Below, in pieces: positions 1,255-10,217 of a DNA stretch of 26,128 nucleotides; the stretch's first letter is position 1, and each line of letters starts with the position of its first letter. Under the pieces are notes generated by a model. It searched no databases, had not been told where the DNA came from, and saw only the letters and a program-made list of their open reading frames with translations. The stretch lies in IMG/VR virus record IMGVR_UViG_2713897073_000006. One strand, given 5' to 3'. Source of the stretch: a virus (lineage: Duplodnaviria; Heunggongvirae; Uroviricota; Caudoviricetes). Position numbers and translations under genes: made by a program.

Positions 1255-1449
1255 TTAATAGTTCTGCTGATTTTCTTCCATCTCGGCTTCTGCTGCCAGT
1301 GATTCAATTTTATCTGCGAATATTGCTGACAGTGTTGCAAATTCAGCATCAGTGACAGCGGGAATTGGAACAAACCTGATCCCGCTGTGTGCAAGCATGT
1401 TTGCAGTTTCAAGGCATTTCCTTAAATCTGCTGGTGATGCCCGGTTCAT
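1255..1449 (-). CDS. Hypothetical small acidic protein (64 aa)
   Basis: ATG at 1449..1447 overlaps the TGA stop of the upstream methyltransferase gene (ATGA coupling), with GGGAG about 9 nt upstream. Product MNRASPADLRKCLETANMLAHSG...EEMEENQQNY. Last gene of the leftward operon, converging on int. Confidence 0.4.
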   Translation of the reverse strand: MNRASPADLRKCLETANMLAHSGIRFVPIPAVTDAEFATLSAIFADKIESLAAEAEMEENQQNY

Positions 1450-2096
1450 GCTGCACGCTCCCGCCCCTGGTTGTCTGTTGGTGACAGCGGAGCATTGCTG
1501 AATGCATTTGTTAATCTGGCAATATCCAATGCGTATCCAGGGTGTAGTTGCACTGCCGGGTCTTCGCACTGATTACCCCAAACATCGAAGCCATGAGACG
1601 ACTGGCGGGCGAACAGTTCAATGCGAGAAACATCGCCTAACAATTGCACAAGTTTTTCACGAACGACATCTGGTTTTCTTGAATGCTCAAGCCGCGGTGC
1701 GGTAAATGACTGAACGATCCCTGCATTAATGCGCGGAGGTAGTTTTCCCTTTACTGCAAACAGGCAATCTTCACTATTGGCGCGAGTCATGTGTCCCATA
1801 CCCATAACCAGTTTATCTGGTTGTCGACTACCACATTTTATCCATGTGAAGCCCTTCATGGTCATCAGACGGAATCCCCAGGCTTCAACAACTTTTAGCG
1901 CTTCGAGTGGTTGTGTTGGCACCCACCACATGGCCAACAGACAGTTTTCATCGGCCAAATCCCACACAGGAAGGCGGCAGATATCCATCACACTCATAAC
2001 CGGATATTTAAAACCGGCACCGCGATTACCATCTGCGGCTTTGTCCCGGTATACCCAGGGTGGATCTGCATAGATTAGTGTGTATTTCTTAGTCAT
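1446..2096 (-). CDS. MT-A70 family N6-adenine DNA methyltransferase
   Basis: 216-aa ORF with the catalytic DPPW motif near the N-terminus (LIYADPPWVY) and the conserved downstream core typical of phage Dam-like MT-A70 enzymes. Its ATG overlaps the stop of the upstream ORF (ATGACTAA). Confidence 0.85.
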   Translation of the reverse strand: MTKKYTLIYADPPWVYRDKAADGNRGAGFKYPVMSVMDICRLPVWDLADENCLLAMWWVPTQPLEALKVVEAWGFRLMTMKGFTWIKCGSRQPDKLVMGMGHMTRANSEDCLFAVKGKLPPRINAGIVQSFTAPRLEHSRKPDVVREKLVQLLGDVSRIELFARQSSHGFDVWGNQCEDPAVQLHPGYALDIARLTNAFSNAPLSPTDNQGRERAA

Positions 2097-2795: not shown

Positions 2796-3737
2796 TTACA
2801 TAGATGTTTCGTTTAATTCTTCTCGACGAACGCTGTAAACGTCGGTGGCTTTTGCCAGCAGTTCGTCATCATCTGAAAGTTTTTGTGCAATGTATTTGTA
2901 AGCTTTATCCAGTTCGAAGACAGTGCTGTAATTCATCGCTGCGCTGGTAAAGGCCATCAGCATTTCTTCTGGATCACGGCTATCCGCTTTACGCGTTTGC
3001 TCATCAGGCTTTTTCACTTGTTTAGCGTTGATCAGACTGTTCATTCCCGCAGCAGTGGTCGTTTGCGGAGTAATGTCTCGCTCAACGCGCGGTGCCGTTT
3101 CCTGTAATTCGTCTGGTGTGTAGACGCCCATGATTACGTCAGGACAGTGCAGGCGAGACCAGCGTTTTGTCGCAAGGTATGCGAGTTGTTGTTTCGGATC
3201 ACTGGCCCAAAGTGTGGAGTTTCTTACCTGTGCTTGAGACAGCATTAACTCAAGCACTCGAGGTTGATCCTCGCCCTTCATGGTTGCCCATACGCGAACA
3301 CCGCAGCCTTCTTCGTCTTTTAGAGTCCAGCCTGGTGCGATATATGGATTGCCGTTTTTGGATGTTTTCTCAACAAACTTACCGATCACGCGTTCCCACG
3401 GCCCGAACCACTCGTAGTTGATGCGATCTTTTGTTGGCGACATCGTTGAGATAACTGCGTTTACTAATTGGGCTTCATAACCTAGCGTGCCGTTCACAAC
3501 ATGGGTTTTCTGAGCCACGGCAAACGGGTTCATTCCCCACTGCGCAGCCTGCATTGCCACGGCCATGCAATCAGCTGGTTTCCCGGCGAGGTGCGCCGGT
3601 ACCGTTACGCGGCTTTGCGCCATTACCTCGGCGAATTTCATCAGTTGGTTCAAGCCGTCTGGGCTGAAAATAGTTGCAGCAGTTCCAGCGATTGCTGTGT
3701 CTACTGGTGCGTTGATGTTTGCGATGTCGTTGCTCAT
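2796..3737 (-). CDS. recT: RecT/Bet-family single-strand annealing protein
   Basis: The central region (WGMNPFAVAQK...GPWERV...LWASDPKQQLAYLATKRWSRL) parallels the lambda Bet / RecT core. ATG at 3737 has an AGGA ribosome-binding site and overlaps the exonuclease stop (ATGA). The ORF track extends the frame to 3764. Confidence 0.8.
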   Translation of the reverse strand: MSNDIANINAPVDTAIAGTAATIFSPDGLNQLMKFAEVMAQSRVTVPAHLAGKPADCMAVAMQAAQWGMNPFAVAQKTHVVNGTLGYEAQLVNAVISTMSPTKDRINYEWFGPWERVIGKFVEKTSKNGNPYIAPGWTLKDEEGCGVRVWATMKGEDQPRVLELMLSQAQVRNSTLWASDPKQQLAYLATKRWSRLHCPDVIMGVYTPDELQETAPRVERDITPQTTTAAGMNSLINAKQVKKPDEQTRKADSRDPEEMLMAFTSAAMNYSTVFELDKAYKYIAQKLSDDDELLAKATDVYSVRREELNETSM

Positions 3738-4555
3738 ATGTACATATCCTGTTTGCGTGCCCACTCAGGGCGTTTAATGATTTCCACACCGCCCCATTCA
3801 TCATTGATGCGGCATTCGTGATAGGTATTCAGATCCCGGCGGAACAGAGCGTGCCCGGCATCGACATCCTGCGCATCCAGCTCGAACACGCGTACCGGAT
3901 ACCGACCACAATCAATGCTTTCGCTCACGGCAAGAAAGAAAAAACCATGCGGCTGACCAGTAACCCTCATTGCGCCTTCGCGGTACATTGCGTCCTGCAC
4001 GTGGTAGCGGAATTCCTCGATGTGGCGTGCAAAACGGTCCATATCTGCAACCTTTTTCACGTCGACGATTACGTTGTGCTCGTTCAGCCATTTGTCTGGA
4101 CGAATTCGGCACAACTCACCCGTCTCTTCATCGTTCCAGTACATTGATGCTTCGCAGTAACCAGGTGCTTCCAACATCCAGCGTGCCGCCGGATGAGCCA
4201 TTGCGCTATCACGCATCAGCTCCAGTTTTCGCCACTGCTCGACATCAAGTACCGTAATACCCATATCCGCCACATCACGAAGAAATGCTTCTTCGTCAGC
4301 TTTACCTTGTTTTGTCCGACGATCTAATTTCGGTGAAACGATGAAGCGTTTGTCGAATTCTCCAGGTTCCAGAAGCAGACAGTGCAATGCGGTTCCCATA
4401 TCCAGTGCAGACTTTTTCTCTTCGTCTTCTGGTGCTGCCTGAACCCATTTAAGAAGCGCCGGATTCTTGGCAACCATGTCCAGTTGCGACTTACTCACGC
4501 CGTCACCGGCGTGGTAGTCTTCGTTGCTGATGTCGAAATAAATTCCCGGTTTCAT
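3734..4555 (-). CDS. RecE-like PD-(D/E)XK 5'-3' exonuclease, partner of RecT
   Basis: 273-aa ORF immediately upstream of and coupled to the annealing-protein gene. Has a D...(D/E)xK nuclease signature (RIRPDKW ... VIVDVKK). AGAGGGA ribosome-binding site. Confidence 0.75.
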   Translation of the reverse strand: MKPGIYFDISNEDYHAGDGVSKSQLDMVAKNPALLKWVQAAPEDEEKKSALDMGTALHCLLLEPGEFDKRFIVSPKLDRRTKQGKADEEAFLRDVADMGITVLDVEQWRKLELMRDSAMAHPAARWMLEAPGYCEASMYWNDEETGELCRIRPDKWLNEHNVIVDVKKVADMDRFARHIEEFRYHVQDAMYREGAMRVTGQPHGFFFLAVSESIDCGRYPVRVFELDAQDVDAGHALFRRDLNTYHECRINDEWGGVEIIKRPEWARKQDMYI

Positions 4556-4851
4556 GCCGCGTCCCTCTGCCCATCAAGCTGATCAGCCAGATCCCAGCGC
4601 GCGATAATTGCCATTGCCTCGCGCCGGTAGGCATCCATCAGTTCTTCGAACTCAGGGCTGTCTTTAGCTGCTTCCAGCACTTCCTGGCGAACTCCTTTGC
4701 CTGTTACAACGTCGAAAGTTGAGGCCAGTTGATGAAGCCGGATGGTCTCAATCAGTTCAACTTGTCGGTCATATAGCTGTTCTGACAGGCGGTAGTCCTT
4801 GTCGAATGCCAGCATGATTTTTTGAAGATTTTTCTGCTGATTAACGTTCAT
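4552..4851 (-). CDS. Hypothetical early protein (99 aa)
   Basis: ATG at 4851 with a strong GGGAGGG ribosome-binding site 5 nt upstream. Its stop overlaps the exonuclease start (ATGA). The ORF track's longer version to 4866 lacks a ribosome-binding site. Confidence 0.55.
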   Translation of the reverse strand: MNVNQQKNLQKIMLAFDKDYRLSEQLYDRQVELIETIRLHQLASTFDVVTGKGVRQEVLEAAKDSPEFEELMDAYRREAMAIIARWDLADQLDGQRDAA

Positions 4852-4854
4852 TAT

Positions 4855-5007
4855 CAGCCCTCCCATATCTCGTTATCGTTGGCCACATCGCGAGCTTCTT
4901 TGCTGACGAAAGCCCACTTAATGCCTTCCTGTAAGGTGCGGAACTTCCAGCTCATGAATCCGCATGCAGTAACGCAGTACCAACCGTTGATGATTTTCCA
5001 CTGCATA
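4855..5007 (-). CDS. Hypothetical small protein (50 aa), first gene of the leftward operon
   Basis: Hand-translated MQWKIINGWYCVTACGFMSWKFRTLQEGIKWAFVSKEARDVANDNEIWEG. The stop lies 3 nt before the next ATG, and the gene sits just downstream of the PL-like promoter and operator. Below the ORF-track size cutoff. Confidence 0.3.
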
Positions 5008-5025
5008 ACTTGTTACCTCGGTCTG

Positions 5026-5040
5026 TTACCGTTGAGGTAA
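5026..5040. promoter_or_regulatory. Palindromic operator-like site TTACCgttgaGGTAA (site a)
   Basis: Perfect TTACC-N5-GGTAA inverted repeat, 19 nt upstream of the first leftward gene and overlapping a putative -10 region. Confidence 0.6.
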
Positions 5041-5068
5041 TAATTATGCTTATTTGGTTTGGTGTCAA
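5040..5068 (-). promoter_or_regulatory. Putative PL-like sigma70 promoter for the leftward early operon
   Basis: On the minus strand, TTGACA (complement of 5063-5068) is followed about 16-17 nt later by TAATTA/CATAAT-like hexamers, flanked by operator sites a and b. The -10 assignment is approximate. Confidence 0.4.
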
Positions 5069-5087
5069 TAGATATGAGTTAAAAAAA

Positions 5088-5102
5088 TTACCCGTAAGGT
5101 AA
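5088..5102. promoter_or_regulatory. Palindromic operator-like site TTACCcgtaaGGTAA (site b)
   Basis: Perfect TTACC-N5-GGTAA, 62 bp from site a, on the other side of the putative PL promoter. Confidence 0.6.
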
Positions 5103-5114
5103 TCTATCTGGCAA

Positions 5115-5138
5115 TAAAAAAGCCGCCATGAGGCGGCT
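5115..5138 (-). terminator. Rho-independent terminator downstream of the repressor gene
   Basis: Stem AGCCGCC / GGCGGCT (5121-5127 / 5132-5138) with loop ATGA. On the minus strand the stem is followed by a run of six T (complement of AAAAAA at 5115-5120). Confidence 0.7.
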
Positions 5139-5159
5139 TACTTGCTGAAAACTATAGTT

Positions 5160-5744
5160 TTATTGTTTGCTTTTTTCGTTCTGGTTGATGACAAATTCAA
5201 TGTAACTTTCGATCTTTGCCTTCTCTGTTTCAGGTAACAATGCGTAGCGCGAGCGGTCATAGTTGATAGTCGCGGGGTCGTGCGGGTGAATCAGTAATTC
5301 ATATCCGTGACGCCCAAATGCGGATGCAACATTCTCCAGGGTGGAAATGGAAACGCTGACCTCATTGTTTAACAGGCGGCTGATTGTTACCTGGGCGACG
5401 CCGGATGCGCGGTGAAGTTTTCCCTGCGTTGAAAGGTCGCGGCTTTCGCTCATCCAGCGTTCCAGGTTGTGAGCCGCCAGTTGACCAATGTCGCTTGGTC
5501 CGACAGGCTGAAAACCTTCCTGAGAAAGCGAGCGATCGATATCAAGCCAGTTACGGGGTTTATTGGCGGCAGCTTCAATTTTTCGCGCAACCTGGTCGCC
5601 GATAACCTTCTTGCCAAGAGCCCAGCGGTTTACCAGATTTGCCTGAGTTCCAAGTTTTTCAGCCATCCGCGTCTGAACACCATTGAATTCACGGTCGATC
5701 AAGTCGTTGAGATTTTGCCTGCGGACGTCCTGGATACTTTTCAT
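5160..5744 (-). CDS. Prophage repressor, two HTH-like segments and no S24 peptidase domain
   Basis: 194-aa ORF divergent from the Cro-like gene. HTH-like segments QTRMAEKLGTQANLVNRWALGKK and ASGVAQVTISRLLNNEVSVSISTLENVASAFG. No Ala-Gly / Ser-Lys autocleavage module is visible. Confidence 0.75.
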   Translation of the reverse strand: MKSIQDVRRQNLNDLIDREFNGVQTRMAEKLGTQANLVNRWALGKKVIGDQVARKIEAAANKPRNWLDIDRSLSQEGFQPVGPSDIGQLAAHNLERWMSESRDLSTQGKLHRASGVAQVTISRLLNNEVSVSISTLENVASAFGRHGYELLIHPHDPATINYDRSRYALLPETEKAKIESYIEFVINQNEKSKQ

Positions 5745-5799
5745 TTTCTGGAAAATCGCCTCATATCTGAATCAGAAGATGATTCAATTTAAAGCAATA

Positions 5800-5814
5800 T
5801 TACCCAACAGGTAA
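5800..5814. promoter_or_regulatory. Palindromic operator-like site TTACCcaacaGGTAA (site c)
   Basis: Perfect TTACC-N5-GGTAA in the repressor/cro divergent region, on the repressor (PRM) side. Confidence 0.6.
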
Positions 5815-5844
5815 ATGCACCTCATGGGTAACTATCCTTGATTT

Positions 5845-5873
5845 TTGTTACCTTATAGGTGAATATTTATTAT
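5845..5873 (+). promoter_or_regulatory. Putative PR promoter (-35 TTGTTA, -10 TATTAT) with operator site d in the spacer
   Basis: TTGTTA at 5845-5850, 17-bp spacer, TATTAT at 5868-5873, about 25 nt upstream of the Cro-like ATG. The spacer holds TTACCttataGGTGA (5848-5862), a one-mismatch copy of the operator motif. Confidence 0.5.
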
Positions 5874-5898
5874 CTGAAATAAATATCAGGCAATAGCT

Positions 5899-6129
5899 AT
5901 GAGCGATAACGGACATTTCGATTTCAAAAAGCACTGGCTTGCACTTACTCCGGATGAGCGTGAAGCCTTCGCACAGGAAGCCGGAACGACGAGTCACTAT
6001 ATCCAGACTCACTTAACAGGTAAGCGCAAAATGCCAGGTAAGGTATTGATGGATGGGCTTTTTAAAGCCTGTAAATCAAGACAATGGCTGCGCTCAAAAG
6101 CAGAACTGGCATACTTCTTCTACTCATGA
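5899..6129 (+). CDS. Cro-like / YdaS-type small HTH regulator
   Basis: 76-aa ORF divergent from the repressor, with an HTH-like segment EAFAQEAGTTSHYIQTHLTGKRKMP. Position and size match a Cro-type early regulator. Confidence 0.6.
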   Translation: MSDNGHFDFKKHWLALTPDEREAFAQEAGTTSHYIQTHLTGKRKMPGKVLMDGLFKACKSRQWLRSKAELAYFFYS

Positions 6130-6150
6130 TATCCAGCCACAACCCTCTGT

Positions 6151-6174
6151 AGACCGCCATCCGGCGGTCTTTTC
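6151..6174 (+). terminator. tR1-like rho-independent terminator after the Cro-like gene
   Basis: Stem AGACCGCC / GGCGGTCT (6151-6158 / 6163-6170), loop ATCC, then TTTT. Confidence 0.65.
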
Positions 6175-6185
6175 ATATCTATTCG

Positions 6186-6200
6186 TACCTCAAGGGTAAT
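6186..6200. promoter_or_regulatory. Operator-like site GTACCtcaagGGTAA (site e, one mismatch)
   Basis: Imperfect copy of the TTACC-N5-GGTAA motif between the tR1-like terminator and the cII-position gene. Confidence 0.4.
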
Positions 6201-6279
6201 AAAAAACCAAATATGGTTGATCTTTTTTTTGTGTCAGCACAAAATAACCGTAATCCCAATACTAATAACAGGGCTTACC

Positions 6280-6480
6280 ATGGAAATCATTACACGTATT
6301 GATGCCGCAAAGCGCGGACTTAAACGCTACTACACCGGAAAAACATGTAAGCACGGACATGACAGTGAACGCTGGGTTTACAACGGACACTGTGTTGAGT
6401 GCACCATGGAATCAAACCGTCGTATCAGGGCAGAGATTAAGCAGATCATGATTAATTCCTCCCCACAACATTCAAGCTGA
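6280..6480 (+). CDS. Small zinc-finger protein in the cII position (function unknown)
   Basis: ATG at 6280 gives 66 aa, MEIITRIDAAKRGLKRYYTGKTCKHGHDSERWVYNGHCVECTMES..., with a C-x-H-x-H ... H-C-x2-C metal-binding pattern. The ORF-track version starts at a TTG at 6217 with no ribosome-binding site. Confidence 0.5.
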   Translation: MEIITRIDAAKRGLKRYYTGKTCKHGHDSERWVYNGHCVECTMESNRRIRAEIKQIMINSSPQHSS

Positions 6481-6495
6481 TAGCGGAGATTAATC

Positions 6496-7311
6496 ATGAG
6501 CAGACATGCAACAGATTGGGCCTGGGAGACAGATCCAGATAGCTCGTCATTAAAGCTCATACTGCTCTCGATGGCTGACAGAGCCGATGAATATAACCTC
6601 TGCTACCCCAGCATAGAACGCCTCGTTAAAGACACTTGCCTGAATAAAAAAACCGTGCAGGCCGGACTTATATCGCTCATGAAAATGGGGCTTATTTCAG
6701 ATACCGGGGAGAGAAAGGGAGCGACAAAAAGAGTGCGGGTTTTCTCTCTTAATATAACCAAAAACGGGAACATTAAAGGCAACCGAGAGGGGGGCAATGA
6801 ACCCGAAAACGGTAATGTTACCGAAAACGGGAATATACCCAAAAACGGGATGTTGAATGATCCCAAAAACGGGATGTTGAATGATCCCAAAAACGGGATC
6901 CAGAACCAGTCATATAACCAGTCATTTAACCAAGAGAGGGAGAGCAGGACAAAAAACGGGGATTCTGTGCATCATGACCCCGGCGCAAACAACGCCGTGA
7001 TGAATAACTTTGTTCCTCCTGGTGGGCCAGGGCAATTAGGCAAATTTGTCATGCATGAACAATGGCAGCCATCAGATGACTTTCTTCGGAAAAGCTCATT
7101 GCAGGGGATCTACCTGGACAGTCTGCCAACGGCACAGGAACTTGCAGAGTTCAGAATTTACTGGATGGCTGAGGGTAAGGCATACCATCAGGCACAGTGG
7201 GAGCAGAAGCTGGCAAGGCGGCTGCAGATTAGCAGACAGAAGCAATCAACATTACCTGATAACAACGTTCCGCACTGGAACAGCCCTGAAGCATGGGAGG
7301 ATTTCTTGTGA
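6496..7311 (+). CDS. Replication initiator, lambda O-like (phage replisome organiser)
   Basis: 271-aa ORF. N-terminal MSRHATDWAWETDPDSSSLKLILLSMADRADEYNLCYPSIERL is the winged-helix replisome-organiser type. The middle of the gene carries DNA iterons that encode an NG-rich linker. The stop overlaps the P-like start. GGAG ribosome-binding site. Confidence 0.8.
   Translation: MSRHATDWAWETDPDSSSLKLILLSMADRADEYNLCYPSIERLVKDTCLNKKTVQAGLISLMKMGLISDTGERKGATKRVRVFSLNITKNGNIKGNREGGNEPENGNVTENGNIPKNGMLNDPKNGMLNDPKNGIQNQSYNQSFNQERESRTKNGDSVHHDPGANNAVMNNFVPPGGPGQLGKFVMHEQWQPSDDFLRKSSLQGIYLDSLPTAQELAEFRIYWMAEGKAYHQAQWEQKLARRLQISRQKQSTLPDNNVPHWNSPEAWEDFL
6758..6898 (+). repeat. Iteron array (putative origin of replication) inside the O-like gene
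   Basis: Six direct copies of CC(C/G)AAAACGG(G) starting at 6758, 6803, 6821, 6838, 6862 and 6886. The last three sit on exact 24-bp tandem units (cccaaaaacgggatgttgaatgat). A seventh, weaker copy lies near 6949. Confidence 0.7.
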
Positions 7312-8093
7312 ACAACGTTTTTACCGCGATACAAAACCGTGACGGAGAAGCCCTTTCTCGCATGTCAGGTTATGAGCATCAGTACACCAACAATGACAAC
7401 GTAGTGAACATGTCAGCAGAGAGGCTTGTTGATGCCCTTTTCAAACAGTTGAAACAACTGTTTCCGGCGGCAGTGGTAACCAACCTGAAGACGCCAGAGC
7501 AGGAAGTTGCTGCAAAACAGCAGTGGATTGCTGCGTTTGCCGAAGGGGGGATCCGAACCCGTGAACAGGTTTCTGCTGGTATGCGCCACGCCCGCGCCAG
7601 TGAATCTCCGTTCTGGCCGTCGCCAGGGCAATTTATCAAGTGGTGTAAAGACAGCAAGATGGTTCTTGGCGTCACCATTGACGATGTGATGGCGGAGTTT
7701 CACCGGTACAGCAAGGAAAAAAGTTTATATCCTGGTGGTCCCGAAAGATTCCCGTGGCGGCATCCGGTTATGTACTGGGTCGTATGTGATACACGCCGTG
7801 CAATGTATCAGCGCCAGCTTAGCGAGATTGAGGTTGAGAAACACGCGCGCAGGCTGCTCGATGATTGGGCGAAAAAGGTGGCTTCCGGACAGCAGATACC
7901 CGATCCGGTGATCAGCATACAGGCAAAGCCAGAGCCCATGAGTACGCCTCCGGACACAGGGAGAGACGTTTACCATCCACCAGGGCGAAGTTTCGGGTGC
8001 ATGCCTAACGCCGCCACCCTTGGGGGAATAACACCGGCGCAGTGGCTGATGGAGGAATACAGGCGGGGAAAGGCGGCAGGATTTATCAAGTAA
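7308..8093 (+). CDS. Replication protein P-like (DnaB helicase loader)
   Basis: Protein contains FWPSPGQFIKWC, matching the lambda P motif FLPSPGQFVAWC, and the flanking regions align. GTG at 7308 overlaps the O stop (GTGA) with GGGAGG 7 nt upstream; an alternative ATG lies at 7293. Confidence 0.8.
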   Translation: MNNVFTAIQNRDGEALSRMSGYEHQYTNNDNVVNMSAERLVDALFKQLKQLFPAAVVTNLKTPEQEVAAKQQWIAAFAEGGIRTREQVSAGMRHARASESPFWPSPGQFIKWCKDSKMVLGVTIDDVMAEFHRYSKEKSLYPGGPERFPWRHPVMYWVVCDTRRAMYQRQLSEIEVEKHARRLLDDWAKKVASGQQIPDPVISIQAKPEPMSTPPDTGRDVYHPPGRSFGCMPNAATLGGITPAQWLMEEYRRGKAAGFIK

Positions 8094-8098
8094 TACCA

Positions 8099-8118
8099 GC
8101 GCGATAGCGCATTTTTTT
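8099..8118 (+). terminator. Weak terminator-like hairpin plus T-run after the P-like gene
   Basis: Short stem GCGC / GCGC around GATA (8099-8110) followed by seven T. The stem is only 4 bp, so this is tentative. Confidence 0.35.
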
Positions 8119-8130
8119 ACGTCTATATGA

Positions 8131-8145
8131 TTACCTGGAAGGTAA
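8131..8145. promoter_or_regulatory. Palindromic operator-like site TTACCtggaaGGTAA (site f)
   Basis: Perfect motif upstream of the virion operon; forms a pair with site g. Confidence 0.6.
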
Positions 8146-8192
8146 TAAAATGTTCTAATCTCTATTGATTTCATGTCTTATGTGGTTTTTAA

Positions 8193-8207
8193 TTACCTAA
8201 GGGGTAA
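8193..8207. promoter_or_regulatory. Palindromic operator-like site TTACCtaaggGGTAA (site g)
   Basis: Perfect motif ending 4 nt before the ATG at 8211. It is 62 bp from site f, the same spacing as the a/b pair, with a TTGATT -35-like hexamer between them. Confidence 0.6.
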
Positions 8208-8210
8208 ATC

Positions 8211-8399
8211 ATGAGAAAACAGATACAGGCTCTTGGTCGACTCAAAACAGGCCAGATGAACAAAACAGAATCTGCGTATTGCCAGCACCTTGAGCTGCGT
8301 AAACGTGCAGGGGAAATCGCCTGGTATCGATTCACCATCAGTGCCTGCAACACCAGAAGTTCAGGCAGCACCACAGGAGCAGGATGCCGCCGTTGTTGA
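8211..8399 (+). CDS. Hypothetical small protein; possibly the N-terminal part of a frameshifted gp7.3-like gene
   Basis: ATG at 8211 with AAGGGG 6 nt upstream. Product MRKQIQALGRLKTGQMNKTESAYCQHLELRKRAGEIAWYRF... The +1 frame is open from 8260 and encodes the gp7.3-like C-terminus. Confidence 0.35.
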   Translation: MRKQIQALGRLKTGQMNKTESAYCQHLELRKRAGEIAWYRFTISACNTRSSGSTTGAGCRRC

Positions 8400-8523
8400 T
8401 GCCCGCGACGAAGAAACTCGTCGCCGTCGCGCTGCTGCTGGTCGTAGTTCTACGCTGCTTACCGGTTCTCAGGGCGACACATCAACCGCTAATACCAGCG
8501 GTAAAACGCTGCTTGGTCAGTAA
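8290..8523 (+). CDS. T7 gp7.3/gp6.7-like virion protein, C-terminal region (no convincing own start)
   Basis: C-terminal ...PEVQAAPQEQDAAVVDARDEETRRRRAAAGRSSTLLTGSQGDTSTANTSGKTLLGQ resembles the T7 gp7.3 C-terminus (VEVPQAAAQ...RKKARAGGKKSLSV...) from memory. Lies directly upstream of the portal, as in T7. The frame starts only at TTG/GTG codons without a ribosome-binding site. Confidence 0.45.
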   Translation: MSCVNVQGKSPGIDSPSVPATPEVQAAPQEQDAAVVDARDEETRRRRAAAGRSSTLLTGSQGDTSTANTSGKTLLGQ

Positions 8524-8537
8524 CCGGAGTCATTGAA

Positions 8538-10217
8538 ATGGCGGAAACAACTAAAGAGCGATTGAACAAACAGTTCGCACAACTTGAAAGCGAGCGTCAG
8601 TCGTTCGAGCCGCACTGGCGCGAGTTGAGTGATTACATCAACCCGCGTGGTTCCCGCTTTCTGACTTCTGAGGTCAACCGTAACGATCGACGCAATACAC
8701 GCATTATTGATTCGACCGGGACTATGGCGGCGCGCACTCTCGCCAGCGGCATGATGTCAGGCATCACAAGCCCCGCGCGTCCGTGGTTTCGCCTGGCTAC
8801 GCCAGATCCTGAAATGATGGATTATGGCCCTGTTAAGTTGTGGCTTGAGGCGGTGCAGAACCGCATGAACGATATGTTCAATAAGTCGAATCTCTATCAG
8901 TCGCTGCCGCAGTTATACGGAAGCCTCGGCACATACAGCACTGGCGCAATGGCGGTGCTGGAGGATGACGAGGACATCATTCGTACAATGCCATTCCCGA
9001 TAGGAAGTTACTACCTGGCTAACTCACCTCGTGGCAGTGTGGACACCTGTTTTCGCAAGTTCTCTATGACTGTTCGTCAGCTTGTTCAGGAGTTCGGGCT
9101 AAATAACGTCAGCGAATCCGTAAAAAGCATGTGGGAAAGCGGCACCTACGAGAAGTGGATTGACGTGATGCATTCGGTTTACCCGAACATTGACCGCGAT
9201 ACATCGAAGCTGGATAGCAAGAACAAGCCATTCAAATCGGTTTATTACGAGGTTGGTGGCGATAACGACAAGTTGTTGCGTGAGTCCGGATTTGATGAGT
9301 TTCCAATTATGGCTCCGCGCTGGGAAGTTAACGGCGAAGATGTTTATGGATCATCATGCCCGGGTATGCTGGCGCTTGGACCTGTTAAGGCATTGCAGCT
9401 TCTCCAGAAGCGCAAGTCGCAGTTGATTGATAAAGCCACCAATCCGCCGATGGTTGCTCCGACTTCCCTCAAGAATCAGCGTGCCTCCCTTCTTCCTGGC
9501 GACATCACGTATATCGATCAGATTACTGGTCAGGATGGTTTCAGGCCTGCTTATCTGGTTAACCCCAGTACAGCAGATTTGGTGGCAGACATTCAGGACA
9601 CTCGTCAAATCATTAACAGCGCCTACTTTGTCGATCTGTTCATGATGTTGCAGAACATCAATACCCGCTCGATGCCTGTTGAAGCGGTGATCGAAATGAA
9701 AGAAGAAAAACTTCTGATGTTGGGGCCGGTTCTGGAGCGTCTGAACGACGAATGTCTTAACCCTCTCATTGACCGCGCTTTCTCGATGATGGTGCGTAAA
9801 AACATGCTGCCGCCACCGCCTGACGCGATGGAAGGTATGCCCCTGAAGGTCGAATACATTTCCGTCATGGCTCAGGCGCAGAAGTCTATCGGCCTGTCCA
9901 GTCTGGCGTCCACGGTTAACTTCATTGGTCAACTTGCGCAAGCGAAACCAGAAGCTCTCGACAAACTCAACGTTGATCAGGCGATCGATGCATTCGCTGA
10001 TATGTCCGGAGTGTCTCCAACCGTCATTGTTCCGCAGGAACAGGTTGAGCAGGCTCGCCAGCAACGGGCACAGCAACAACAGCAGCAACAAATGATGGCG
10101 ATGGGGATGGCGGCGGCACAGGGTGCCAAGACGCTAAGCGAAGCTAAAACTTCGGATCCGAGTGTTTTGTCAGCTATGGCGAATGCAGTTAGTGGTCAGG
10201 GTGGGCAATCACAATGA
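8538..10217 (+). CDS. Portal (head-to-tail connector) protein, T7 gp8-like
   Basis: 559-aa ORF with GGAG ribosome-binding site. Overall architecture and the Gln-rich C-terminus (QQRAQQQQQQQMMAMGMAAAQGAK...) parallel the T7 gp8 C-terminus (QKQQKMAQQSMQMGMDNGAAALAQGMAAQ). Confidence 0.85.
   Translation: MAETTKERLNKQFAQLESERQSFEPHWRELSDYINPRGSRFLTSEVNRNDRRNTRIIDSTGTMAARTLASGMMSGITSPARPWFRLATPDPEMMDYGPVKLWLEAVQNRMNDMFNKSNLYQSLPQLYGSLGTYSTGAMAVLEDDEDIIRTMPFPIGSYYLANSPRGSVDTCFRKFSMTVRQLVQEFGLNNVSESVKSMWESGTYEKWIDVMHSVYPNIDRDTSKLDSKNKPFKSVYYEVGGDNDKLLRESGFDEFPIMAPRWEVNGEDVYGSSCPGMLALGPVKALQLLQKRKSQLIDKATNPPMVAPTSLKNQRASLLPGDITYIDQITGQDGFRPAYLVNPSTADLVADIQDTRQIINSAYFVDLFMMLQNINTRSMPVEAVIEMKEEKLLMLGPVLERLNDECLNPLIDRAFSMMVRKNMLPPPPDAMEGMPLKVEYISVMAQAQKSIGLSSLASTVNFIGQLAQAKPEALDKLNVDQAIDAFADMSGVSPTVIVPQEQVEQARQQRAQQQQQQQMMAMGMAAAQGAKTLSEAKTSDPSVLSAMANAVSGQGGQSQ

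Follow-up and report, generated by a model that had tools for sequence, protein, structure and literature searches.

A repeat array inside the replication initiator gene of a phiV10-like prophage and its probable role as a replication origin

The repeats and the gene that carries them

The stretch of viral DNA considered here, IMG/VR record IMGVR_UViG_2713897073_000006 (Caudoviricetes; 26,128 bases, called the window throughout), contains a gene for a replication initiator, and in the middle of that gene lies a cluster of short direct repeats. A sequence-only reading had proposed that these repeats form a replication origin embedded in a gene resembling O of phage lambda, and we have followed up that proposal computationally. 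The initiator gene, the repeats, which we number as candidate iterons 1 to 6, and the features next to them are listed below (positions are those of the window; aa, amino acids).

6496..7311, plus strand: replication initiator gene, 271 aa, with an HTH_36 winged helix, a repeat-encoded linker and a DnaT-like C-terminal domain
6496..6756, plus strand: coding segment of the N-terminal winged helix, aa 1-87 (Pfam HTH_36 at aa 18-67)
6755..6770, plus strand: iteron 1, TAACCAAAAACGGGAA, an outlier 45 bp upstream of the core array, in the gene's least stable 40-mer
6800..6815, plus strand: iteron 2, AACCCGAAAACGGTAA, the first 18-bp-spaced unit, with a core equal to the phi80 iteron core
6818..6833, plus strand: iteron 3, TTACCGAAAACGGGAA
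6836..6851, plus strand: iteron 4, TACCCAAAAACGGGAT, the start of an exact 24-bp tandem
6860..6875, plus strand: iteron 5, ATCCCAAAAACGGGAT, with ATCCC/GGGAT arms and a GATC overlapping the left arm
6884..6899, plus strand: iteron 6, ATCCCAAAAACGGGAT, the last firm copy, adjoining the CAGAACC element
6901..6934, plus strand: post-iteron element, CAGAACCAGTCATAT AACCAGTCATTT AACCAAG, made of 12-bp direct repeats and adjoining the last iteron
6947..6962, plus strand: doubtful seventh copy, GGACAAAAAACGGGGA, whose core is variable among near-identical loci
7045..7251, plus strand: coding segment of the DnaT-like C-terminal domain (Pfam DnaT at aa 184-252, E 1e-15)
7308..8093, plus strand: lambda-P-type helicase-loader gene (PF06992, E 1.5e-56; phrog_109, E 2.4e-92)

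With at most one mismatch allowed, the motif CCSAAAACGGG matches six times, always on the plus strand, starting at 6758, 6803, 6821, 6839, 6863 and 6887 (start-to-start spacings of 45, 18, 18, 24 and 24 bp), and no further match was found on either strand in the rest of the 26,128 bases. Shuffled sequences gave a mean of 0.85 matches and a maximum of 4, and none of 100 shuffles reached 6. The claim of six to seven direct repeats thus holds, the seventh being a weaker copy, CAAAAAACGG, at 6950; when the initiator gene was shuffled by codons, the best 10-mer occurred at most four times, against seven observed. Tandem Repeats Finder returned a 24-bp unit present 2.6 times with 100% matches at 6838-6899, as expected from the proposal that three repeats sit on an exact 24-bp tandem, together with an 18-bp unit present 2.8 times at 6801-6850 and a separate 12-bp unit present 2.4 times at 6904-6932. 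The consensus first proposed, CC(C/G)AAAACGGG, captured the motif; its register is slightly off, lacking one A of the 24-bp units, and CC[A/C/G]AAAACGG, which fits all six firm copies, describes the repeats better.

The 24-bp units read CCCAAAAACGGG, and the full site, ATCCC-AAAAAC-GGGAT, has dyad symmetry. Iterons 5 and 6 carry 5-bp inverted arms (ATCCC/GGGAT) around the A-tract, iteron 4 has arms of 4 bp (CCC/GGG plus A/T), and iterons 1 to 3 have only CC..GG or CCG..CGG. Judged by sequence, five copies form the firm core of the array, the first is outlying and the seventh is doubtful, and the seventh is probably not a functional iteron. GATC (Dam) sites at 6859, 6883 and 6897 overlap the iteron arms, and three GATC in 60 nt is the highest density in the window, reached at only 22 positions; given these sites and a DNA methyltransferase gene in the prophage, control of an origin by methylation or SeqA is conceivable. 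Terminator-like matches on the minus strand at 6889-6870 and 6865-6846 were rejected as artefacts of the consensus scan, since they consist of the iteron palindrome and the T-run complementary to its A-tract, and GC skew was dropped as an origin indicator because gene orientation dominates the skew in a 26-kb prophage fragment.

All seven copies lie within the open reading frame (ORF) 6496-7311 on the plus strand and share one codon phase. That this frame encodes an initiator was borne out: its product matches phrog_1032, 'replication initiation protein', over aa 1-269 (E 2.1e-107), the lambda-P-type loader gene comes next, and no second multi-copy repeat array was found in the early region (4500-8600). 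The repeats code for aa 88-155, a run of (T/P)(K/E)NG peptide repeats, with the HTH_36 domain (aa 18-67) on one side and the DnaT-like domain (aa 184-252) on the other, so the Pfam limits agree with the idea that the array encodes an NG-rich linker between domains. The whole protein is 98-99% identical to its counterparts in phages phiv142-3, PAS61 and phiV10 (gene 43). In the phiV10 record it is named 'putative primosomal protein', and the inspected stretch of that record holds no origin or repeat annotation.

The HTH_36 match (E 1.8e-10; 40.9 bits against a cut-off of 25 bits) identifies the N-terminal winged helix, which by analogy we presume to be the iteron reader. The C-terminal domain is matched by the PDB DnaT chains 9zbt_D and 6aep_A at about E 7e-21 and presumably contacts single-stranded DNA (ssDNA), the complex of P with DnaB, or both. 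Its relation to E. coli DnaT (primosomal protein I) is confined to that domain: the initiator's C-terminal 85 residues align with the ssDNA-binding domain of DnaT (PDB 9zbt, 6aep and 4ou6; about E 1e-20), whereas its N-terminal half is an origin-type winged helix and its gene sits in a phage initiator-loader operon. The architecture of full-length DnaT is absent, as only aa 180-265 align, to DnaT residues 85-170, and the N-terminal half is an unrelated winged helix. The label 'primosomal protein' in database records arises because the C-terminal domain aligns with DnaT; 'DnaT' and 'primosomal protein' name one domain, not the initiator's role.

The description 'O-like' likewise fits the role of the protein and not its family. 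Pfam finds only HTH_36 and DnaT in the initiator and no Phage_rep_O domain (PF04492), which lambda O matches at E 5.7e-36, nor is there a Pfam match at E<=0.01 to Rep_3, the WH1-WH2 domain of plasmid initiators. BLASTP of the N-terminal domain against lambda O gave no similarity (E 4.0), and a hidden Markov model (HMM) of HTH_36-type domains did not match phi80 gp15. Profile-profile comparison (hhalign) with the lambda O-type N-terminal domain reached a probability of 38% over 28 columns, covering the helix-turn-helix only. On these comparisons, the initiator does not belong to the lambda O protein family.

Repeats and post-iteron element among related genes

All copies in the window share one codon phase, so the window alone cannot separate selection on DNA from selection on protein, and homologues are needed. 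A tblastn search with the N-terminal domain returned 135 phage records, from which 12 diverse homologues were taken, from phages of Edwardsiella, Vibrio, Acinetobacter, Burkholderia, Moraxella, Pseudomonas, Aeromonas, Pectobacterium and E. coli. Every one of the 12 has 3-8 direct repeats starting at about nt 260-300 of the gene, directly after the part that codes for the winged helix. In 7 of them the repeat count is clearly above the maximum of codon-shuffled genes; in AB1, AP22, Stx2a_F403 and ZF40 it is equal to or below that maximum. The spacing breaks the reading frame in Bcep176 (17/22 bp), PseuP_224, Aeromonas 56 (22/23 bp) and Mcat8 (21/22/41 bp), and in GF-2, EPP-1 and PPompW ACCCAAAAACGG, the first copy, encodes T-Q-K-R, and later in-frame copies encode P-K-N-G. 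Third-codon-position identity between the window and GF-2 or H20 is 0.41 or 0.29 in the N-terminal domain, which is near saturation, versus 0.75 or 0.63 in the 24-nt unit (8 codons per unit). Perfect palindromes occur in AB1 (ACCCAAATTTGGGT) and Bcep176 (GTCCCAAATTTGGGAC). Because of the out-of-frame spacing, the different reading frames and the conserved synonymous sites, the homologues, small as the samples are, support the view that the repeats are under selection as DNA.

Close relatives inform on variation, not diversity. The population set comprises 83 near-identical loci, about 99% identical to the window: 80 IMG/VR contigs found with a 6-sequence alignment of the N-terminal domain (two of them ending within the gene), phiV10, BP9, PAS61 and the window itself. 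There are 4 to 9 core matches per gene, most often 6; whole 18-bp or 24-bp units (6 or 8 codons) have been gained or lost, and the proteins are 263-295 aa long, so natural variants by whole 6- or 8-codon units show that the protein tolerates unit gain and loss. Iteron 1 is kept in 76 of the 83 loci and changed to AAAAAAGGG in the other 7. The seventh copy reads AAAAAACGG in 23, AAAAAGCGG in 25 and AAAAACC in 31 of 79 loci. phiV10 carries an additional 12-bp AACCAGTCATAT unit, and BP9 lacks one of the 24-bp units.

Behind the last iteron lies a second conserved feature. In the window it begins with CAGAACCAGTCA and continues as 12-mers containing AACC, in DNA of 37.8% GC against 47.9% for the gene. 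The element recurs behind the last iteron of H20, ZF40, Stx2a_F403 and PseuP_224, whose iterons are quite different, and in Bcep176 its place is taken by four copies of GAACAGTAG; lambda lacks it. Thirteen genes, the window and its 12 homologues, chosen by N-domain similarity only, show a 7.8-fold enrichment of RAACC (p 7.6e-12) over the 67 nt that follow their last iteron, and the motif falls in all three codon phases. Between the window and H20 the element has three differing aligned positions and one 1-nt indel, which makes the encoded peptides unrelated (QNQSYNQSFNQ versus QNQSLEPVIEPS). The element stands 0-2 nt from the last iteron and holds 2-4 phased (G/A)AACC repeats at 9-17 bp. When viral contigs were scanned for CAGAACCAGTCA-N2-7-GAACC, 107 of the at least 120 matches listed fell inside ORFs with a winged-helix profile match, at about aa 120-150, and among the matches listed the element adjoins arrays of at least 25 iteron types. 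Eight cluster representatives of the element-bearing genes all have HTH_36 in Pfam, and their C-terminal regions differ, falling into at least four kinds. From these comparisons, we read the post-iteron element as a conserved, constant part of the origin and possibly as its region for unwinding or helicase entry.

Natural exchanges of gene halves point to the part of the initiator with which the array travels. TL-2011b and Tyrion, of the same phage group, have the upstream region, the DnaT-like domain and the P-like gene in common with the window, and they carry two other, unrelated N-terminal halves (2172-2996 and 3691-4458, respectively) without Pfam matches; DNA homology to the window starts again only where the DnaT-like domain begins. 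No repeat array of the window type was detected in their initiator genes, and the origins of these two phages must be organized differently. The converse exchange is seen in Edwardsiella phage GF-2 (1501-2343), in which a window-type (phiV10-type) N-terminal domain with iterons ATCCCAAAATTGGGAT is followed by a C-terminal half of the lambda O type, 62% identical to that of lambda over 144 aa, and then by a lambda-type P gene. By its sequence, the GF-2 initiator is a natural hybrid. By these exchanges, the array belongs to the N-domain module, in keeping with the classical two-domain logic, by which the N-terminal domain reads the origin and the C-terminal domain engages the loader.

Comparison with known origins and the origin reading

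An origin inside the initiator gene has been a textbook principle since lambda, and the window array is most likely a fresh example of this arrangement, not a new principle. The lambda ori consists of iterons and an AT-rich tract in the middle of O, with bending at the iterons (PMC7466680, PMC3349717). The annotated lambda iterons, ATCCCTCAAAACGAGGGA and variants, occupy nt 349-433 of O at an out-of-frame spacing of 20/24/23 bp. The proposed likeness to lambda stands up well: in both systems direct, dyad-symmetric sites recur at about 18-24 bp in the middle of the initiator gene, in linker-coding DNA; the lambda sites and the 24-bp units of the window share ATCCC/GGGA(T) arms around an AAAAC center; and a P-type helicase-loader gene follows immediately, overlapping the initiator stop codon. 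The two differ in site length (16 bp in the window, 18-19 bp in lambda), in copy number and phase (5-6 copies in frame in the window, 4 out of frame in lambda) and in both protein domains (HTH_36 versus Phage_rep_O at the N terminus, DnaT-like versus lambda-O-like at the C terminus), and where lambda has a 38-bp AT tract of 26% GC, the window has instead the 12-mer AACC element at 37.8% GC.

In the Shiga-toxin (Stx) phages the number of iterons varies from 4 to 6, and the extra iterons are weakly bound yet needed for replication (PMC7466680). The origins of 933W and P27, with six iterons, resemble the window in that iteron number varies within one origin type and in that outer copies are weakly bound and still contribute (PMC7466680); among the near-identical prophages of our set there are 4-9 copies, with the outlying copies less conserved. 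The Stx phages differ from the window in having lambda-type O proteins and lambda-type iterons with measured binding.

Closest in the repeats themselves is phi80 (JX871397, 8664-8740), where four annotated gp15 binding sites, TTCCCGAAAACGGGAA and variants, lie at nt 365-441 of gene 15 with 21-bp spacing. The lambda and phi80 sites have the pattern TCCC..AAAAC..GGGA in common. Their core, CCGAAAACGG, is identical in window iterons 2 (AACCCGAAAACGGTAA) and 3 (TTACCGAAAACGGGAA); overall the two arrays have near-identical cores, 16-bp sites, the same relative position in the gene and a P-like loader gene next. The phi80 copies are four in number and read in another frame (F-P-K-T-G), and both domains of gp15 are of the lambda O type (Phage_rep_O), whereas the N-terminal domain in the window is HTH_36. 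One iteron core goes here with two N-domain Pfam families that have no demonstrable homology.

Theta plasmids with iteron origins (RK2 oriV/TrfA, F/RepE and R6K/pi) have a winged-helix initiator acting on direct repeats, and alongside these, short phased direct repeats (13-mers) form the unwinding element. The window would be similar in combining direct repeats for a winged-helix initiator with short phased repeats on their flank. The plasmid iterons lie outside the rep gene, the Rep proteins have tandem WH1-WH2 domains (Rep_3), and helicase recruitment differs from that of the window system.

From the observed anatomy and position of the repeats, their DNA-level conservation, the domain make-up of the initiator and the association of the array with the N-terminal domain, we think it likely that the array at 6755-6899, with its five firm copies and an outlier, provides the iterons of the phage replication origin, placed inside the initiator's own gene. 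For binding, bending, the site of unwinding, recruitment of the helicase and use as an origin, lambda and phi80 serve as the models. By this analogy, derepression would allow rightward early transcription, from which the initiator would be made. Dimers of its winged helix would then occupy the dyad sites (ATCCC-AAAAAC-GGGAT), which follow one another at 18-24 bp, and bend the DNA into a nucleoprotein complex, and less stable flanking DNA would open, helped by rightward transcription. The best candidate for opening is the 12-mer CAGAACC/AACC element at 6901-6934; the AT-rich left flank at 6739-6757 would be an alternative. The DnaT-like domain may hold the ssDNA, recruit the P-like loader with host DnaB, or do both, and the helicase would be loaded. 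The sites are at the same time codons, and as such they determine the flexible, (T/P)(K/E)NG-rich linker that joins the domains.

Several observations weigh against the origin reading. No AT-rich tract of lambda strength was found beside the array. In terms of 40-mer stability (free energy, dG), the right flank at 6897-6936 has a dG of -48.7 at 37.8% GC and the left flank at 6739-6778 a dG of -45.6, against a gene mean of -54.1 (standard deviation 2.8) and -43.0 at 26% GC for the lambda AT tract; the instability of the flanks is moderate and not lambda-like. Less stable DNA is found between genes, at 5848 (dG -40.2) and 8142 (dG -42.1). The seven copies of the window keep one codon phase, and slippage alone would likewise yield a tandem like the exact 24-bp one, which is polymorphic and young in evolutionary terms. 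For the N-terminal domain, homology to lambda O and phi80 gp15 could not be demonstrated, which makes the analogy one between different protein families. Finally, a single-sequence AlphaFold2 model of the initiator was of low confidence (mean pLDDT, the predicted local distance difference test, 37; pTM, the predicted template modeling score, 0.25) and unusable.

Some of these points could be met if the sites bind the initiator but serve mainly regulation, by titration, autoregulation, a transcriptional roadblock, handcuffing or exclusion of related phages, with opening and helicase loading taking place elsewhere, for example near 5848 or 8142. These two intergenic positions are the least stable of the early region, the gene has no lambda-like tract, and iterons can do more than start unwinding: in lambda, an inhibitory phenotype needs no more than cloned iterons lacking the AT-rich tract (PMC3349717), and the extra Stx iterons are weakly bound yet needed (PMC7466680). 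We nevertheless regard this explanation as unlikely. The conserved element stands at a fixed distance from the last iteron throughout the family, which a composite origin fits better; position 5848 belongs to the divergent repressor/cro promoter region, which holds the only promoter-like match on the plus strand; position 8142 follows the terminator of the loader gene in the phiV10 annotation; and no iteron copy lies near either.

A second alternative concerns the CAGAACC/AACC element only, which might be a conserved junction that promotes homologous exchange of N-terminal (origin-specific) and C-terminal (loader-specific) modules and not a working part of the origin. The element does lie exactly at the break in homology, where the window, H20 and GF-2, having shared N-terminal domain, iterons and element, diverge completely; element-bearing genes go with at least four kinds of C-terminal region; and the lambda record marks recombination points shortly after the iterons, inside the oriλ of PMC3349717. 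Selection for exchangeability would be weak, yet the element is held at 0-2 nt from the last iteron, its 2-4 phased direct repeats are like the unwinding elements of iteron origins, and it is kept in three reading frames, so we give the junction idea slightly less credit still. The remaining alternative, that slippage made a low-complexity N/G/P/K-rich linker whose likeness to iterons is incidental, could draw on the single codon phase of the seven copies with their regular (T/P)(K/E)NG peptide, on the 100% identity of the 24-bp units and on unit numbers that vary among near-identical prophages as slippage predicts, but it is very improbable in view of the frame-breaking spacings and the T-Q-K-R and P-K-N-G readings of one motif in homologues, the synonymous positions conserved in the unit and saturated in the adjacent folded domain, inverted arms that a peptide repeat does not need, a core equal to the annotated gp15 sites that phi80 reads F-P-K-T-G, and the loss of the array where the N-terminal domain is replaced although a linker is still needed.

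Beyond the origin reading for the window, we tentatively suggest, as an idea that we would not yet call probable, that HTH_36 initiators share a two-part origin in their linker DNA. One part would be the iterons, of at least 25 types and dependent on the N-terminal domain; the other would be a constant CAGAACC(AGTCA)/(G/A)AACC element, serving as an undescribed common site for unwinding, helicase entry or a host factor. The iteron core common to phi80 gp15 and HTH_36 families could then reflect an ancient common design or the capture of an origin. In the searchable literature we found no relevant published description of phiV10-type iterons, of an epsilon15 origin, of DnaT-type phage initiators, of the HTH_36 family pattern or of the post-iteron element, and the literal motifs GAACCAGTCA and CCCAAAAACGGGAT occur there only in unrelated primer lists.

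If the origin reading is right, it places a testable origin on the map of phiV10 and other Uetakevirus phages, which serve as reporter and typing phages for O157:H7, and it indicates to those who engineer them where in-frame edits tolerated by the protein may be lethal in cis. It would also provide a rule for finding origins in thousands of prophages, by looking for repeats immediately 3' of the HTH_36 segment and then for the CAGAACC/AACC element. Two testable questions follow: what reads the conserved element, and why the same iteron core serves winged helices that look unrelated. Experiments could be rewarding above all on the post-iteron element and on the core held in common with phi80 across N-domain families.

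Gene neighborhood and state of the prophage

Over bases 5800-8200 the window shows 97-99% identity to phiv142-3, vB_EcoP_PAS61 and phiV10, phages of Escherichia (genus Uetakevirus), and by this similarity the source of the window is a phiV10-like E. coli prophage. Around the initiator and loader genes the window holds the following.

Left edge of the window: integrase gene
1446-2096, minus strand: DNA methyltransferase gene
Between the DNA methyltransferase and repressor genes: RecT and exonuclease genes
5160-5744, minus strand: repressor gene
5899-6129: cro-like gene
Downstream of the loader: connector, head and tail genes

The probable start of the loader gene is the GTG at 7308, which overlaps the initiator stop codon (GTGA), has GGAGG 7 nt upstream and corresponds to an equivalent GTG in the phiV10 annotation; the ATG at 7293, which gives the longest ORF, is a less likely start. 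The GTGA overlap suggests translational coupling of the loader to the initiator.

At about 8200-8332 the window, compared with phiV10, jumps from about 35.2 kb to phiV10 position 3372. It begins in the 5' part of a DUF1064 gene (ORF 8211-8399 is a fusion) and ends shortly before the connector/head-tail adaptor gene (8538-10217). Compared with phiV10, the window lacks about 7 kb, among it the stretch preceding the connector gene, where one would expect packaging genes. The terminase region is absent from the prophage as it stands in the window. As judged from this comparison, the prophage is probably defective, with an intact replication module. Similar segments turn up in two further records. 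Phage BP9 (PP488543.1; 138,295 bp, a Vequintavirus record) carries a phiV10-type immunity and replication segment at 134-136 kb, near the end of the record, and phage PH444 (PP350014.1; 114,913 bp, unannotated) carries another. In both records, assembly may have fused a lytic phage with prophage DNA from the host.

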